A stretch of DNA of 64,000 bases. It comes from Escherichia coli. Lineage in GTDB: Bacteria > Pseudomonadota > Gammaproteobacteria > Enterobacterales > Enterobacteriaceae. This document shows, one piece after another, positions 33,450 to 39,662 of this stretch. Both the position numbers and the translations under genes were made by a program. How positions within the stretch are numbered: position 1 is the stretch's first letter; each line of letters opens with the position of its first letter. The stretch is taken from assembly GCF_003019035.1 (NCBI RefSeq), contig NZ_CP027447.1; one strand, given 5' to 3'. Under the pieces are notes generated by a model, which saw nothing but the letters and a program-made list of their open reading frames with translations, was not told the DNA's origin and searched no databases.

Positions 33450-34403
33450 TTAACCTATCTCCTGTAACGCATGTCTCTGGCGTTCGACGATATTGGTCCA
33501 CAAATTGTCTTTATCGTCAGTCCACAAATTAATCAGCAAGGCAAAAAAGCGTTCAGCTGCCGGAGAAAGCACGGCATCTTTGCGGCGAATAATCCCCAAT
33601 GTCCGACGTATAACGGGTTCCACCAGTGGGATACCAATAATCGAAGAATAGGGCGCATGGGGCATTGCCAGACCAGGAAGCGCCGAAATCCCCAGTCCCG
33701 CCTCCACCAGCCCTAATGACGTCGAAAGATGACGCACTTCGTAAAACCAGTCCAGCTTCCAGGGCTTGTCGGCTAGCTGTTGTTCTATCAACAGTCGGTT
33801 GCCGCTGGAGGAGCGTACGCCAATCATTTTGTAACCCACTAACTCCTGCCATTCTACAAGCTGCTTTTTGGCCAATGGATGGTCACGCCGACAGGCCAGC
33901 ACGAACGGCTCGTTGACCAGTGGGGTAAAATCGATGGATGAATTTGTGACGTTGTTCATGTTTATGCCAAAGTCTGATTCGTTACACAGCACCGATTCCA
34001 TGCAATTATTCGTGCCTTGTTCCAGAATCCGCACTTTAATATTGGGATACAGCTCATTAAATTTACCGATTGCCAGCGGTAAAAAATAAAATACTGCGGT
34101 CGGAATACACGCTAATGTCACCATACCACGATGATAAGCATTCATATCACGAATATTAAAAAGCGTTTCATCGAATTTCTTTATTAATTCCCGCGCCTCC
34201 GGGAGCAATCTTTTTCCTGCTTTTGTTAACGTAACCTTGCGAGTTGTACGCTCAAATAGTTGGATATGTAAATCCTCCTCCATCTTTTTTATTCTTCGCG
34301 TTAATGCAGGTTGCGTAATATTGAGTAATTTAGCGGCATTGTTAAATGAACTGGACTCTGCCAGTATGACAAATGCCTTCATACTTGATAATTCATGCTT
34401 CAT
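33450..34403 (-). CDS. ybhD: LysR-family transcriptional regulator YbhD
   Basis: N-terminal HTH (FNNAAKLLNITQPALTRRIKKMEEDL) and LysR substrate domain; start trimmed to MKHELSS (317 aa); divergent from ybhH. Confidence 0.9.
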   Translation of the reverse strand: MKHELSSMKAFVILAESSSFNNAAKLLNITQPALTRRIKKMEEDLHIQLFERTTRKVTLTKAGKRLLPEARELIKKFDETLFNIRDMNAYHRGMVTLACIPTAVFYFLPLAIGKFNELYPNIKVRILEQGTNNCMESVLCNESDFGINMNNVTNSSIDFTPLVNEPFVLACRRDHPLAKKQLVEWQELVGYKMIGVRSSSGNRLLIEQQLADKPWKLDWFYEVRHLSTSLGLVEAGLGISALPGLAMPHAPYSSIIGIPLVEPVIRRTLGIIRRKDAVLSPAAERFFALLINLWTDDKDNLWTNIVERQRHALQEIG

Positions 34404-34586
34404 TATTACTCCGGAAAATGGAAGCGTCGATTTTGGGTGGCTGACCGTTAAAAATTTTAACTGCATTTAACCAACTTAAATTAATGAAAAAATGTTATTA
34501 ATCGTTGAGCTAAAGTCATTAGAGATGCTTTGCCCTTAATGTAACCATATCGCAATAAGTTATGTTTTTAAATTGAGGGCATTATT

Positions 34587-35639
34587 ATGAAAAAAATACC
34601 CTGCGTGATGATGCGAGGTGGAACCTCGAGGGGCGCGTTCCTGTTAGCGGAACATCTACCCGAAGATCAAACGCAGCGCGATAAAATATTGATGGCAATT
34701 ATGGGTTCCGGTAACGATCTGGAAATTGACGGTATTGGCGGCGGTAATCCGCTGACCAGTAAAGTCGCCATTATTAGCCGCTCCAGCGATCCGCATGCAG
34801 ATGTCGATTATCTGTTTGCTCAAGTTATCGTCCATGAGCAACGTGTCGATACCACGCCTAACTGCGGCAATATGCTGTCTGGCGTTGGGGCATTCGCCAT
34901 TGAAAATGGTTTGATTGCAGCGACTTCGCCAGTTACCCGCGTACGTATCCGCAACGTCAATACGGGTACGTTCATCGAAGCTGATGTGCAAACGCCAAAT
35001 GGTGTTGTCGAGTACGAGGGTAGCGCCAGAATTGACGGCGTACCGGGTACTGCCGCACCGGTTGCGCTCACTTTCCTGAATGCCGCCGGAACGAAAACCG
35101 GAAAAGTCTTCCCGACAGATAATCAGATTGATTATTTTGACGATGTCCCGGTGACCTGTATCGATATGGCGATGCCAATTGTCATTATTCCTGCTGAATA
35201 TCTGGGAAAAACAGGCTATGAATTACCGGCAGAGCTGGATGCCGACAAAGCATTATTAGCCCGCATTGAATCTATCCGTCTACAAGCGGGTAAAGCAATG
35301 GGCTTAGGCGATGTCAGTAATATGGTTATCCCTAAACCTGTACTTATTTCTCCAGCGCAGAAAGGCGGGGCAATTAATGTGCGTTATTTTATGCCGCATT
35401 CTTGCCATCGCGCTTTGGCGATAACCGGTGCTATTGCTATTTCCAGTAGTTGTGCATTGGAAGGCACCGTCACCCGACAAATCGTCCCTTCTGTAGGATA
35501 CGGCAATATCAATATTGAACACCCCAGTGGTGCGCTCGACGTTCATTTAAGTAATGAAGGTCAGGATGCCACGACGTTACGCGCATCTGTTATTCGGACG
35601 ACCAGAAAAATATTTTCCGGTGAAGTTTATCTTCCCTGA
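34587..35639 (+). CDS. ybhH: PrpF/AcnD-accessory-family isomerase YbhH
   Basis: 350 aa matching YbhH. Confidence 0.9.
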   Translation: MKKIPCVMMRGGTSRGAFLLAEHLPEDQTQRDKILMAIMGSGNDLEIDGIGGGNPLTSKVAIISRSSDPHADVDYLFAQVIVHEQRVDTTPNCGNMLSGVGAFAIENGLIAATSPVTRVRIRNVNTGTFIEADVQTPNGVVEYEGSARIDGVPGTAAPVALTFLNAAGTKTGKVFPTDNQIDYFDDVPVTCIDMAMPIVIIPAEYLGKTGYELPAELDADKALLARIESIRLQAGKAMGLGDVSNMVIPKPVLISPAQKGGAINVRYFMPHSCHRALAITGAIAISSSCALEGTVTRQIVPSVGYGNINIEHPSGALDVHLSNEGQDATTLRASVIRTTRKIFSGEVYLP

Positions 35640-35714
35640 AAAATTTTGTTGTCGTGATAATGACAATCAATAAAGGAATTCTGTATGAGTCATACAGAAA
35701 GAACAGGATATTAA

Positions 35715-37148
35715 ATGAATAAAAAATCGTTATGGAAGCTAATTCTGATATTAGCGATCCCATGTATTATTGGCTTTATGCCAGCTCCGGCAGGATTAAG
35801 CGAACTGGCGTGGGTGCTTTTTGGTATTTACCTGGCGGCCATTGTGGGACTGGTGATTAAGCCTTTCCCGGAACCTGTCGTACTGTTAATTGCCGTTGCT
35901 GCCTCCATGGTGGTGGTCGGTAACTTATCCGACGGTGCGTTTAAGACCACCGCCGTATTAAGCGGTTACTCTTCAGGTACCACCTGGCTGGTGTTCTCGG
36001 CGTTTACCTTAAGCGCCGCATTTGTGACCACCGGCTTAGGTAAACGTATTGCCTATTTGCTGATTGGTAAAATTGGTAGCACTACCCTGGGTCTGGGTTA
36101 CGTTACGGTATTCCTCGATCTGGTACTGGCTCCGGCAACACCGTCTAACACCGCGCGTGCGGGCGGCATTGTGTTACCGATCATCAACAGCGTGGCGGTG
36201 GCTTTGGGGTCAGAACCGGAAAAAAGTCCGCGTCGTGTCGGACATTACCTGATGATGTCCATTTACATGGTCACCAAAACCACCAGCTATATGTTCTTTA
36301 CCGCAATGGCGGGGAACATTCTGGCGCTGAAAATGATCAACGACATTCTGCACCTGCAAATTAGCTGGGGTGGATGGGCGCTGGCCGCCGGATTGCCGGG
36401 CATCATTATGCTGCTGGTCACCCCGCTGGTGATTTACACCATGTATCCACCAGAAATTAAGAAGGTGGATAACAAAACCATCGCTAAAGCGGGCCTTGCC
36501 GAACTGGGACCGATGAAAATCCGCGAAAAAATGCTGCTCGGTGTCTTTGTGCTGGCGCTGCTGGGCTGGATTTTCAGTAAGTCTCTGGGGGTTGATGAAT
36601 CCACCGTGGCAATCGTTGTTATGGCAACTATGCTGCTGCTGGGCATCGTTACCTGGGAAGACGTGGTTAAAAATAAAGGCGGCTGGAATACCTTAATCTG
36701 GTACGGCGGTATTATCGGCTTAAGCTCCTTATTATCGAAAGTTAAATTCTTCGAATGGTTAGCTGAAGTCTTTAAAAATAACCTGGCATTTGATGGTCAC
36801 GGGAACGTTGCTTTCTTCGTTATTATTTTCCTCAGCATCATCGTGCGTTATTTCTTCGCTTCTGGTAGTGCCTATATCGTTGCCATGTTACCGGTATTTG
36901 CCATGCTGGCGAATGTCTCCGGCGCACCGTTAATGTTAACCGCGCTGGCACTGTTGTTCTCTAACTCCTATGGCGGCATGGTTACTCACTATGGCGGCGC
37001 GGCAGGTCCGGTCATCTTTGGCGTGGGTTACAACGATATTAAATCCTGGTGGTTGGTCGGTGCGGTACTGACGATATTAACCTTCCTGGTGCATATCACC
37101 CTCGGCGTGTGGTGGTGGAATATGCTGATCGGCTGGAACATGCTGTAA
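35715..37148 (+). CDS. ybhI: DASS-family di/tricarboxylate transporter YbhI
   Basis: 477 aa polytopic membrane protein. Confidence 0.93.
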   Translation: MNKKSLWKLILILAIPCIIGFMPAPAGLSELAWVLFGIYLAAIVGLVIKPFPEPVVLLIAVAASMVVVGNLSDGAFKTTAVLSGYSSGTTWLVFSAFTLSAAFVTTGLGKRIAYLLIGKIGSTTLGLGYVTVFLDLVLAPATPSNTARAGGIVLPIINSVAVALGSEPEKSPRRVGHYLMMSIYMVTKTTSYMFFTAMAGNILALKMINDILHLQISWGGWALAAGLPGIIMLLVTPLVIYTMYPPEIKKVDNKTIAKAGLAELGPMKIREKMLLGVFVLALLGWIFSKSLGVDESTVAIVVMATMLLLGIVTWEDVVKNKGGWNTLIWYGGIIGLSSLLSKVKFFEWLAEVFKNNLAFDGHGNVAFFVIIFLSIIVRYFFASGSAYIVAMLPVFAMLANVSGAPLMLTALALLFSNSYGGMVTHYGGAAGPVIFGVGYNDIKSWWLVGAVLTILTFLVHITLGVWWWNMLIGWNML

Positions 37149-37156
37149 ATATACTC

Positions 37157-37270
37157 GTCATACTTCAAGTTGCATGTGCTGCGTCTGCGTTCGCTCACCC
37201 CAGTCACTTACTTATGTAAGCTCCTGGGGATTCACTCGCTTGTCGCCTTCCTGCAACTCGAATTATATAG
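37157..37270. repeat. ERIC/IRU enterobacterial repetitive intergenic consensus element
   Basis: Contains gtgaatccccaggagcttacataagtaagtgactggggtgagcg (reverse complement on the + strand), the ERIC core. Confidence 0.8.
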
Positions 37271-37330
37271 AGTATATCCATTTATTATCTTTCTGCGCAC
37301 TTTCCGGTGCGCAGATATCTGGAGCATTTG

Positions 37331-39592
37331 ATGATCAAGTTATCTGAAAAAGGCGTGTTTCTCGCCAGTAATAAGGAAATAATTGCCGAAGAACATTTCA
37401 TCGGTGAAATAAAAAAAGAAGAAGCAAAAAAAGGCACTATTGCCTGGTCTATTCTCTCTTCTCATAATACGTCTGGTAATATGGATAAACTTAAAATTAA
37501 GTTTGATTCATTAGCCTCTCACGATATTACCTTTGTTGGTATTGTACAGACCGCTAAAGCGTCCGGTATGGAACGTTTCCCGCTGCCGTATGTGCTGACC
37601 AACTGCCATAACTCACTCTGCGCCGTCGGCGGCACTATTAACGGTGATGATCATGTTTTTGGTTTATCGGCAGCCCAGCGTTATGGCGGTATTTTTGTGC
37701 CTCCGCACATTGCGGTCATCCATCAATATATGCGTGAGATGATGGCAGGCGGCGGCAAAATGATCCTCGGGTCAGACAGCCACACCCGTTACGGTGCATT
37801 AGGGACAATGGCAGTCGGTGAGGGCGGCGGTGAGTTGGTAAAACAGCTGCTTAATGACACCTGGGATATCGACTATCCGGGCGTGGTTGCGGTGCATCTG
37901 ACCGGAAAACCTGCGCCGTATGTGGGGCCGCAGGATGTGGCGCTGGCTATCATCGGTGCCGTGTTCAAAAACGGTTACGTCAAAAACAAAGTGATGGAGT
38001 TCGTAGGTCCCGGTGTTGCAGCGCTCTCTACCGATTTCCGCAACAGCGTTGACGTGATGACCACTGAAACGACCTGTTTAAGTTCTGTCTGGCAAACCGA
38101 TGAAGAAGTCCATAACTGGCTGGCGCTGCACGGTCGCGGCCAGGATTACTGCCAGCTTAACCCTCAACCGATGGCGTACTACGATGGCTGCATCAGCGTT
38201 GATTTAAGCGCCATCAAACCAATGATTGCGCTGCCGTTCCACCCGAGCAACGTCTATGAAATCGACACGCTGAACCAGAACCTGACCGACATTCTGCGTG
38301 AGATTGAAATTGAGTCCGAACGCGTGGCGCACGGTAAAGCCAAACTCTCGCTGCTGGATAAAGTCGAAAACGGTCGCCTGAAAGTGCAGCAGGGGATTAT
38401 CGCGGGCTGTTCTGGCGGTAACTATGAAAACGTCATCGCGGCGGCGAATGCGCTGCGCGGTCAATCCTGTGGCAATGACACCTTCTCGTTAGCGGTTTAC
38501 CCGTCATCACAGCCGGTGTTTATGGATCTCGCCAAAAAAGGTGTGGTAGCAGATTTGATTGGCGCAGGCGCAATCATCAGAACCGCGTTCTGCGGCCCAT
38601 GCTTTGGCGCGGGCGATACGCCAATCAACAACGGTTTGAGTATTCGCCACACCACGCGAAACTTCCCGAATCGCGAAGGCTCTAAGCCAGCCAATGGGCA
38701 GATGTCAGCGGTGGCGTTGATGGACGCTCGTTCTATCGCTGCGACTGCGGCAAACGGTGGCTATTTAACCTCTGCCAGCGCGCTGGATTGCTGGGACAAC
38801 GTGCCGGAGTACGCCTTCGATGTAACGCCGTATAAAAACCGTGTTTATCAGGGCTTTGTGAAAGGGGCGACCCAGCAACCGCTGATTTACGGACCGAACA
38901 TTAAAGACTGGCCGGAATTGGGTGCGCTGACTGACAATATCGTCCTCAAAGTGTGCTCAAAGATCCTCGACGAAGTGACCACCACCGACGAACTGATCCC
39001 TTCCGGTGAAACCTCTTCTTATCGTTCAAATCCGATTGGTCTGGCGGAGTTTACCCTGTCACGCCGCGATCCAGGTTATGTTGGCAGAAGTAAAGCGACT
39101 GCTGAGCTGGAAAATCAGCGTCTGGCGGGGAATGTCAGCGAGCTGACAGAGGTGTTTGCGCGCATTAAGCAGATTGCTGGTCAGGAACATGTTGATCCGC
39201 TGCAAACTGAAATTGGCAGCATGGTTTATGCGGTGAAACCAGGCGATGGTTCTGCGCGTGAACAGGCGGCGAGTTGTCAGCGTGTGATTGGCGGTCTGGC
39301 GAATATTGCCGAGGAGTACGCGACTAAACGCTATCGTTCTAACGTCATCAACTGGGGGATGTTACCGCTGCAGATGGCGGAAGCGCCAACCTTTGAAGTG
39401 GGGGATTACATTTACATCCCTGGCATTAAAGCGGCACTGGATAATCCGGGTACGACGTTTAAAGGTTATGTGATCCATGAAGATGCGCCGGTAACGGAAA
39501 TTACGCTTTACATGGAAAGCCTGACGGCTGAAGAGCGCGAGATTATCAAGGCGGGTAGTTTGATTAACTTCAATAAAAACCGTCAGATGTAA
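37331..39592 (+). CDS. ybhJ: Aconitase-family protein YbhJ
   Basis: Aconitase-like Fe-S hydratase domains; start placed at MIKLSEKG, which has a GGAG RBS 6 nt upstream (753 aa), rather than track start 37307. Confidence 0.9.
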
Positions 39593-39662
39593 AAAAAGGC
39601 GCTATGAAATATAGCGCCCAGTTTCATTAACCCGATGGTTCAGACTATCGGGTTTTCTTTTT
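39593..39662. terminator. Bidirectional terminator region between ybhJ and ybhC
   Basis: Two hairpins (ggcgctat...atagcgcc and cccgatggttcagactatcggg) flanked by A- and T-runs. Confidence 0.75.

Follow-up and report, generated by a model that had tools for sequence, protein, structure and literature searches.

What the genes ybhD, ybhH, ybhI and ybhJ do for Escherichia coli is the question raised by positions 33450-39592 of the window (by which we mean the whole stretch of 64,000 nucleotides of E. coli DNA that was analysed), where these genes lie with pgl upstream and ybhC downstream. Our answer, to which we give a probability of roughly 60%, is that the four genes form an inducible module for the uptake and catabolism of trans-aconitate, and that this module is a variant of the TarR/TarA/TarB system of Bacillus; the assignment is a prediction from sequence comparison and gene order. 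trans-Aconitate is an abundant plant acid of grasses, and it is also a competitive inhibitor of aconitase. The features on which the argument draws are the following.

33450-34403, minus strand: ybhD, gene for a LysR-type regulator of 317 amino acids, divergent from ybhH (RefSeq annotation and HTH_1/LysR_substrate domains).
34480-34502, no strand assigned: candidate LysR box ATTAAT-N11-ATTAAT, within the ybhD-ybhH intergenic region 34404-34586, read directly from the sequence.
34587-35639, plus strand: ybhH, PrpF superfamily, 350 amino acids; predicted aconitate isomerase.
35715-37148, plus strand: ybhI, DASS-family anion transporter of 477 amino acids; predicted importer of trans-aconitate, possibly a C4-dicarboxylate exchanger.
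37149-37277, no strand assigned: ERIC (IRU) repeat between ybhI and ybhJ, recognised by core sequence, dispersed repetition and hairpin.
37331-39592, plus strand: ybhJ, aconitase-family Fe-S hydratase of 753 amino acids; predicted cis-aconitate hydratase.
39629-39654, plus strand: terminator-like hairpin and T-run (an 11-bp stem, then TTCTTTTTTT), closing the ybhHIJ unit.

An earlier note on this DNA had described a LysR gene, ybhD, divergent from an operon for a PrpF-like isomerase, a DASS transporter and an aconitase-family hydratase; the coordinates and arrangement are as it claimed, and the families are borne out by Pfam and NCBIfam scores far above chance. YbhD matches LysR_substrate at 158 bits and HTH_1 at 76 bits, YbhH matches PF04303 (PrpF) at 558 bits, YbhI matches PF00939 (Na_sulph_symp/DASS) at 648 bits and TIGR00785 at 553 bits (cut-off 198.6), and YbhJ matches PF00330 (Aconitase) at 296 bits and, at 1537 bits, NCBIfam PRK11413, the family to which YbhJ-type proteins belong and whose name is simply 'hydratase'. 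The note had further proposed uptake and isomerisation or hydration of an unsaturated tricarboxylate-like substrate, which agrees with all the comparative evidence gathered here, and it had held that the identity of this substrate was not firmly established and that a published assignment would refute it; a full-text literature search on ybhD, ybhH, ybhI and ybhJ gave no such assignment. The region is 100% identical to that of E. coli SCU-301, and because at least 80% of it is covered in 5315 of 5426 complete E. coli genomes, the cluster can be counted as part of the species core.

In the series of steps that we propose, YbhD would keep the ybhH promoter off through the ATTAAT-N11-ATTAAT box, with trans-aconitate as the predicted inducer; YbhI would import trans-aconitate, probably in exchange for a C4-dicarboxylate (succinate or malate); and YbhH would move the double bond by a 1,3-proton shift involving Lys59 and Cys93, giving cis-aconitate. 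LigU acts likewise, by a 1,3-allylic shift, on oxalomesaconate, which is trans-aconitate plus one carbonyl, and so takes a trans (E, fumarate-like) tricarboxylate to the cis (Z, maleate-like) form. YbhJ, which would be an Fe-S aconitase acquired from a gut-anaerobe lineage, is predicted to hydrate the cis-aconitate to citrate or isocitrate, and in doing so it would both pull an unfavourable isomerase equilibrium (the trans isomer being favoured) and bypass AcnA and AcnB, the aconitases inhibited by trans-aconitate. The product would enter the tricarboxylic acid (TCA) cycle or, under anoxia, be cleaved by citrate lyase (citCDEFXG, elsewhere in the genome) to acetate and oxaloacetate, and the oxaloacetate would be reduced to succinate and used for exchange by YbhI. 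Among all these steps, the de-repression of ybhH in a ybhD deletion is the one with experimental support. Assimilation of trans-aconitate has been reported for Citrobacter and Enterobacter isolates (PMC13188880).

A first line of evidence for trans-aconitate lies in the company that YbhD and YbhH keep in other bacteria. In Rhizobium leguminosarum, R. lusitanum and Shinella, a divergent LysR gene precedes a YbhH-like gene that is followed by an ABC transporter only (two unannotated Rhizobiaceae plasmid records were analysed by tblastn), and in Variovorax the YbhH-like gene occurs with a LysR gene and with a binding-protein gene of the tripartite tricarboxylate transporter (TTT) type just upstream. 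ABC and TTT binding-protein systems are importers. In Pseudosulfitobacter the YbhH-like gene comes after TctC/TctA-type transporter genes, near tcuA (tricarballylate dehydrogenase), and no hydratase or aldolase genes were found in the Rhizobium/Shinella, Variovorax and Pseudosulfitobacter loci examined. YbhD itself is 47% identical to the LysR protein paired with the closest YbhH relative in Rhizobium and 44% identical to that of Variovorax. Because the YbhD-YbhH pair recurs with nothing but a transporter in Rhizobium, Shinella and Variovorax, isomerisation alone would seem to reach central metabolism, and since the sensor-isomerase pair is joined to tricarboxylate-type uptake with no further dedicated enzyme, conversion of trans- to cis-aconitate fits best of the reactions that we are able to name. 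A variant of the isomerase occurs on plasmid 3 of Variovorax sp. SRS16 (L095:4995-7019; L numbers are our labels for the loci compared), where the YbhH-like protein is fused to a C-terminal Bug/TctC-like binding domain and reaches 674 amino acids.

The control region holds a candidate site for such a sensor. The genes ybhD and ybhH face each other across 183 bp (34404-34586), and the open reading frame (ORF) of ybhD stays open for 21 codons upstream of its annotated start, to an ATG at 34466; the start giving 317 amino acids is preferred because of the RefSeq annotation and the conserved N-terminus of homologues. Edwardsiella tarda keeps the block TAAATTAAT..ATTAATCGTTGAGCTAAAGTCATTAG of the intergenic region, as ATTAAT-N11-ATCAAT, and ATTAAT-N11-ATTAAT at 34480-34502 is our candidate for the YbhD binding box. 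A scan for sigma-70 promoters gave matches no more frequent than in shuffled sequence. Rodionova et al. 2022 (PMC9068703) found ybhH strongly up-regulated in a ybhD deletion and a single YbhD ChIP-exo site, described a growth phenotype of the deletion with L-malate from which a tentative label, 'L-malate utilisation related', was drawn, and listed, from databases, control by Nac; the supplement of that paper gives no fold change for ybhJ. Exchange of malate by YbhI would account for the malate phenotype of the de-repressed strain.

Such exchange finds some footing among the structures to which YbhI can be related. The solved relatives found at E <= 0.001 are only the plastid proteins DiT1 and DiT2.1 and the bacterial DASS protein 6wtw/6wu1, which we take to be LaINDY; DiT1, DiT2.1 and LaINDY are exchangers, and exchange of trans-aconitate for succinate or malate by YbhI is plausible for that reason. 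The transporter gene is not intact everywhere, as in Edwardsiella tarda (L002/L003:8483-9915) its reading frame is broken into two ORFs that overlap and account for 46% and 54% of the protein; no gene has been called there, and the locus looks like a frameshifted pseudogene. In E. hoshinae (L013) ybhI is intact.

The genes found next to relatives of YbhJ provide the second line of evidence. More than 590 such relatives turned up when one genome per species was scanned, and the ORFs around them were clustered and the clusters named by Pfam and NCBIfam. Beyond the enterobacteria, the best matches are full-length proteins, 67-73% identical to YbhJ, from strict gut anaerobes, including Lachnospiraceae, Enterocloster, Hungatella, Blautia, Megasphaera, Synergistales and many Collinsella. 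At least nine loci have the YbhJ gene, a citrate synthase gene (PRK14032, 584 bits) and an Iso_dh gene, closest to isocitrate dehydrogenase models, in that order and all in one orientation, the median gap between genes being 21 nt. In Synergistales the YbhJ gene is followed by an Iso_dh gene of 400 amino acids, in six loci it adjoins the citrate lyase genes citD, citE and citF, and in Collinsella it stands alone between hspR and clpB. The simplest reading of these neighbourhoods is that the YbhJ family is the citrate/isocitrate aconitase of these gut anaerobes, and at 70% identity the E. coli enzyme should share its chemistry.

Lacrimispora amygdalina (L017) has a LysR gene that faces a one-strand run of a CitMHS/MatC transporter gene, a PrpF gene, a YbhJ gene (70%) and citD-citE-citF-citG-citC, and the gene order is identical in an uncultured relative (L059). 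This is the E. coli gene set plus citrate lyase, which E. coli encodes elsewhere, and read from left to right the operon would stand for import, isomerisation, hydration to citrate, and cleavage to acetate and oxaloacetate. In Klebsiella aerogenes, ybhD-HIJ carries an extra CitMHS citrate-type transporter gene between ybhI and ybhJ (L004:8683-9945), and it occupies a different chromosomal position, not between pgl and ybhC but about 2 kb from citAB, oadGAB, citS and citC (L004:12356-22286); because the location next to citrate fermentation genes differs from that in E. coli, it appears that the four-gene module moves as a unit.

Orthologues of YbhJ at 67-73% identity to the E. coli protein are spread across Bacillota, Actinomycetota (Collinsella) and Synergistota (L010-L089, e.g. 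L029:686-2998, L054 and L073), and as identity of this degree across phyla exceeds the vertical expectation, horizontal transfer between gut anaerobes and Enterobacteriaceae is suggested. A wider proposal, which we put forward tentatively and regard as possible rather than probable, is that YbhJ-type proteins (PRK11413) are a distinct and genuine class of aconitase, the enzyme that takes citrate to isocitrate in many gut anaerobes (Lachnospiraceae, Collinsella, Megasphaera and Synergistales among them). Enterobacteria would have captured one such enzyme by horizontal transfer and joined it to a proteobacterial YbhD/YbhH pair and a DASS exchanger, and E. coli would thereby have a trans-aconitate-tolerant route for fermenting or respiring, in the gut, an important plant acid.

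Other anaerobe loci with YbhJ relatives have a different make-up. Two from Clostridia (L057:8567-14669 and L026:7250-11250) hold an RraA-like gene (CHA/HMG aldolase family) together with a gene for a 650-amino-acid aconitase; the first also has a PrpF gene and a further YbhJ paralogue, 48% identical, the second also has a glutamate-synthase-small-subunit-like oxidoreductase gene and an Iso_dh gene, and both look like an uncharacterised anaerobic tricarboxylate pathway separate from the trans-aconitate proposal. A metagenome contig (L009:199-10202) has three aconitase-family genes (756, 650 and 733 amino acids) with LysR, Iso_dh and PrpF genes, and this stacking of paralogues suggests split dehydration and rehydration steps or several substrates.

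The direction in which the module works has to be weighed as well, as the cluster might make and export trans-aconitate, with YbhJ dehydrating citrate, YbhH isomerising cis-aconitate and YbhI exporting the product, as in the tbrA-tbrB system of Bacillus thuringiensis. The enzymes would be identical and their reactions are reversible, TarA and TbrA are interchangeable and the transporter is thought to set the direction, and Enterobacterales isolates that secrete trans-aconitate have been reported (PMC13188880). We nevertheless judge export unlikely, given that catabolic uptake systems typically have this layout, a substrate-type LysR gene facing an operon that includes a DASS carrier, that the Lacrimispora operon joins the same enzymes to citrate lyase, a catabolic sink, and that related YbhD/YbhH pairs have ABC and TTT binding-protein systems as their neighbours.

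Catabolism of trans-aconitate depends on what YbhH isomerises. PDB entry 6OTV, titled 'putative isomerase YbhH', is the E. coli protein and differs from that of the window at two residues (H70R, I198V); the term '6OTV' was not found in the full-text literature search. K59 and C93 of YbhH align with a Lys/Cys pair found without exception in the 20 PrpF-family sequences compared, LigU and TbrA included; in LigU it is presumably the catalytic pair K66/C100. YbhH matches LigU, '(4E)-oxalomesaconate delta-isomerase' (PDB 6P3H/J/K), and it scores 515 bits on NF033377 (OMA_tautomer), for which the cut-off of 440 is passed, so that RefSeq gives it the name '4-oxalomesaconate tautomerase'.

With that score in hand one could hold that the substrate is 4-oxalomesaconate or a related ring-fission tricarboxylate, that YbhH is a LigU/GalD-type enzyme and that YbhJ replaces the GalB/LigJ hydratase; YbhH is 44-49% identical to the isomerases of gallate (gal) or protocatechuate (lig) gene contexts, LigU and GalD included, and keeps their catalytic residues, and two of the anaerobe loci described above pair aconitase-family genes with an RraA-like gene, L057 with a PrpF gene as well. 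However, TbrA also reaches 413.6 bits on NF033377, and the model therefore cannot separate oxalomesaconate isomerase from aconitate isomerase activity. In a neighbour-joining tree (200 bootstraps) in which the relatives were labelled by gene context, the gallate- and protocatechuate-context isomerases form one clade with LigU at a bootstrap of 100% and YbhH falls outside it, beside transporter-linked isomerases, grouping at 94.5% bootstrap with the R. leguminosarum isomerase, to which it is 57% identical. The gal/lig-context loci examined (from a K. aerogenes plasmid, Pantoea, Azospirillum, Agrobacterium and Ralstonia) carry gallate/protocatechuate dioxygenases, GalB/LigJ hydratases and CHA aldolases, whereas no oxalomesaconate (OMA) hydratase of the GalB/LigJ type, CHA aldolase or ring-cleavage dioxygenase lies within 6 kb on either side of the E. 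coli cluster. YbhD is only about 24% identical to the GalR proteins of gallate clusters, and the close YbhJ orthologues have links to citrate metabolism, all of which makes an oxalomesaconate pathway quite unlikely in our view. The name 'oxalomesaconate tautomerase' for YbhH was rejected on the context-labelled tree. Residues 42, 45, 53, 171, 194, 195, 251, 269 and 278 of YbhH are candidates for sites at which the clades differ.

We conclude that YbhH is predicted to be an allylic isomerase that is not an oxalomesaconate enzyme, and we predict aconitate as its substrate. YbhH is 41% identical to TbrA; the protein used here for the comparison comes from the PrpF+DMT gene pair of the B. thuringiensis tbr operon, and it is taken as TbrA because a 100% identical copy lies on plasmid pCT281 of CT-43, the strain in which tbrA/tbrB were characterised. 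Identities to TarA of about 40% are given for the Shigella, E. fergusonii, Citrobacter and Edwardsiella homologues by Zheng et al. 2024 (PMC11495376) in their Table S6.

Whether YbhJ can be the hydratase that this route calls for was assessed by alignment to mitochondrial aconitase. The start of ybhJ is set at 37331, not at the GTG at 37307, because homologues begin MIKL..., which matches 37331. C360, C421 and C424 align with the 4Fe-4S cysteines, the DSHT motif (D149, H151), H93, H131, E246 and the catalytic S641 are kept, and R443, R448 and R643 align directly with carboxylate-binding arginines (the reference set being mitochondrial Arg447, Arg452, Arg580 and Arg644). These Fe-S Cys, Ser, His, Asp, Glu and aligned Arg residues are invariant in the six active family members that were aligned, and the position of Gln72 in aconitase aligns with His64 in YbhJ. 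For Arg580, the third-carboxylate arginine, HMMER left the stretch unaligned, and we take R565 to be its counterpart by the spacing of the motif TTD..P.G....R. Because of the conserved residues, and because its orthologues lie in operons with citrate synthase and isocitrate dehydrogenase (IDH) or beside citrate lyase, YbhJ is probably a real aconitase. The family also has degenerate members, as P0147 and P0154 are full-length homologues (37-38% identical) without the DSHT motif and the CGPC cysteines and are probably non-catalytic pseudo-enzymes.

An aconitase-family enzyme working with a PrpF-family enzyme has a precedent in the AcnD-dependent 2-methylcitrate cycle (PMC5690661), and by analogy YbhJ could make the 'wrong' aconitate isomer from an alkyl- or hydroxy-citrate analogue (2-methylcitrate, homocitrate) for YbhH to correct, a pairing reminiscent of the anaerobe loci L009 and L057 with their multiple aconitase paralogues, PrpF and Iso_dh. 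We consider this very unlikely, since YbhJ attains 63.5 bits on the AcnD model TIGR02333 against a cut-off of 1419.85, YbhH attains 187.3 bits on the PrpF equivalog TIGR02334 against a cut-off of 440.55, E. coli already has PrpD in use, and the YbhD/YbhH-type pairs of Rhizobiaceae and Variovorax occur without an aconitase, so that the isomerase must act first on the imported compound.

A C4 or C5 dicarboxylate would be either itaconate, converted by way of citraconate to citramalate (as by Mii/DmdAB in nicotinate fermentation), or the substrate of an L-malate-related system as put forward in 2022. In its favour, the nearest solved relatives of YbhI are dicarboxylate carriers, the ybhD deletion has its L-malate growth phenotype (PMC9068703), and 3G7K, a 3-methylitaconate isomerase, is matched by YbhH at 232 bits. 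We hold such a substrate to be just as improbable, since the aconitase-type arginines persist in YbhJ (the third-carboxylate one by motif), the genes linked to YbhJ orthologues are those of citrate synthase, IDH and citrate lyase and not those of citramalate enzymes, YbhH relatives occur together with tripartite tricarboxylate transporters, and malate as the counter-substrate of YbhI would explain the malate phenotype equally well.

Several points weigh against trans-aconitate catabolism itself. The full-text literature search, run with the gene names and with trans-aconitate terms, found no experiment that ties E. coli or the ybh genes to trans-aconitate; other matches for ybhD, ybhH, ybhI and ybhJ, beyond Rodionova et al. 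2022 and Krisko et al. 2014, were incidental, and a 2026 preprint on ppGpp mentions ybhJ only in the strain genotype ybhJ(L54I). An engineered E. coli W3110 accumulates 37 g/L trans-aconitate with no obvious re-consumption (PMC12492653), although this accumulation was on glucose, with the ybh cluster presumably off. The passing of the NF033377 cut-off by YbhH belongs here too, as does the position of Asp100 in aconitase, which aligns with a probable Cys92 in YbhJ. Some loci (L009, L026 and L056-58) have a YbhJ homologue and a 650-amino-acid aconitase side by side, and YbhJ-type enzymes might for that reason have a distinct substrate in some anaerobes. The reported control by Nac is not accounted for by the trans-aconitate model, nor is the need for YbhJ in a cell with AcnA and AcnB clearly explained. 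In the abstract of the 2002 study by Blank and co-workers, inactivation of ybhJ is said to have left the residual aconitase activity of acnAB mutants unchanged. Krisko et al. 2014, who found a ybhJ deletion to be H2O2-sensitive and low in NADPH, described YbhJ, with reference to Blank et al. 2002, as an aconitase paralogue without catalytic activity. Repression by YbhD could explain both the unchanged residual activity and the apparent inactivity of YbhJ. The label 'catalytically inactive paralogue' was not accepted here, as the catalytic residues are intact and the degenerate homologues P0147 and P0154 look different.

Two non-coding features complete the picture of the operon. The ERIC element that the earlier note had placed between ybhI and ybhJ is there, as seen from its core sequence, repeat copies and hairpin. 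The spacer of 182 bp between the two genes contains the repeat, and positions 37193-37236 read cgctcaccccagtcacttactt|atgtaagctcctggggattcac, the ERIC core, in which cgctcaccccagtcacttactt and atgtaagctcctggggattcac are, we assume, the two ERIC-PCR primer sites. The spacer has a median of 5 megablast matches per E. coli genome, and 37149-37277 folds as a single long hairpin of 129 nt (-44.4 kcal/mol, z = -6.8). At this junction the element occurs also in E. albertii and is absent in Citrobacter, Edwardsiella and Klebsiella, genera in which ybhI and ybhJ are almost contiguous; being Escherichia-specific and missing from tight junctions elsewhere, it appears to be a late insertion into an older operon. 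At the other end of the operon, ybhJ and ybhC converge, and the 70 bp that separate them hold two terminator-like hairpins, as the strong one at 39629-39654 is met by a converging hairpin at 39597-39619 that is assigned to ybhC, so that they form a back-to-back pair with one on each strand.

If the cluster does serve trans-aconitate catabolism, four E. coli y-genes would gain a function at once, and E. coli would gain a new carbon source, one plentiful in grasses, cereals and sugar cane and hence in herbivore and human guts. The misleading RefSeq name '4-oxalomesaconate tautomerase' would be corrected, many gut anaerobes would be seen to have their working aconitase in a large family now named only 'hydratase', and inhibition of ordinary aconitase by trans-aconitate would give a reason for a third aconitase beside AcnA and AcnB. 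The cluster itself was known and annotated; the specific trans-aconitate hypothesis is the new part, and it overturns nothing.

Comparison with known systems places the module as follows. TarR/TarA/TarB of Bacillus velezensis FZB42 (Zheng et al. 2024, PMC11495376) likewise has a LysR gene divergent from an operon of a PrpF-type isomerase and a transporter, and likewise senses and imports its substrate and isomerises it to cis-aconitate, as proposed for ybh. TarB belongs to the major facilitator superfamily (MFS), whereas the ybh transporter is a DASS protein and not a homologue of TarB, the ybh cluster adds a dedicated aconitase-family gene, and TarR is an activator whereas YbhD behaves as a repressor in the sole published data. 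In TbrA/TbrB of B. thuringiensis CT-43, TbrA, whose aconitate isomerase activity is proven, shares with YbhH its PrpF subgroup, the Lys/Cys pair, the identity of 41% given above and a transporter as its partner. Unlike ybh, however, that system is biosynthetic and has an exporter of the DMT family; it lies on a plasmid, flanked by IS200/IS605 tnpB genes, and neither a regulator nor an aconitase is annotated next to it.

LigU and GalD (PDB 6P3H/J/K for LigU) share with YbhH the fold, the Lys/Cys pair and 44-49% identity, and YbhH passes the cut-off of the NCBIfam model, but they belong to a separate clade (bootstrap 100%), their hydratase, aldolase and dioxygenase partners are absent at ybh, and the predicted substrate of YbhH, unlike theirs, has no 2-oxo group. 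AcnD/PrpF of the 2-methylcitrate cycle and Mii/DmdAB of nicotinate fermentation resemble ybh in having a PrpF-family isomerase and an aconitase-family hydratase or dehydratase that act on an unsaturated polycarboxylate; they differ in that YbhJ is of neither the AcnD nor the LeuCD type, YbhH lies outside the PrpF and Mii subgroups, and at ybh the predicted order is isomerase first, on a compound that has been taken up, and hydratase second. Anaerobic citrate fermentation through CitT and citrate lyase is established knowledge for E. coli itself, and there, as in the ybh proposal, citrate lyase receives its tricarboxylate by way of a DASS carrier, which probably takes succinate in exchange, an exchange that for YbhI we infer. 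It takes two fewer enzymatic steps before citrate and is under CitA/CitB two-component control, unlike the LysR-controlled ybh module, to which, in K. aerogenes, the citrate fermentation genes lie adjacent.

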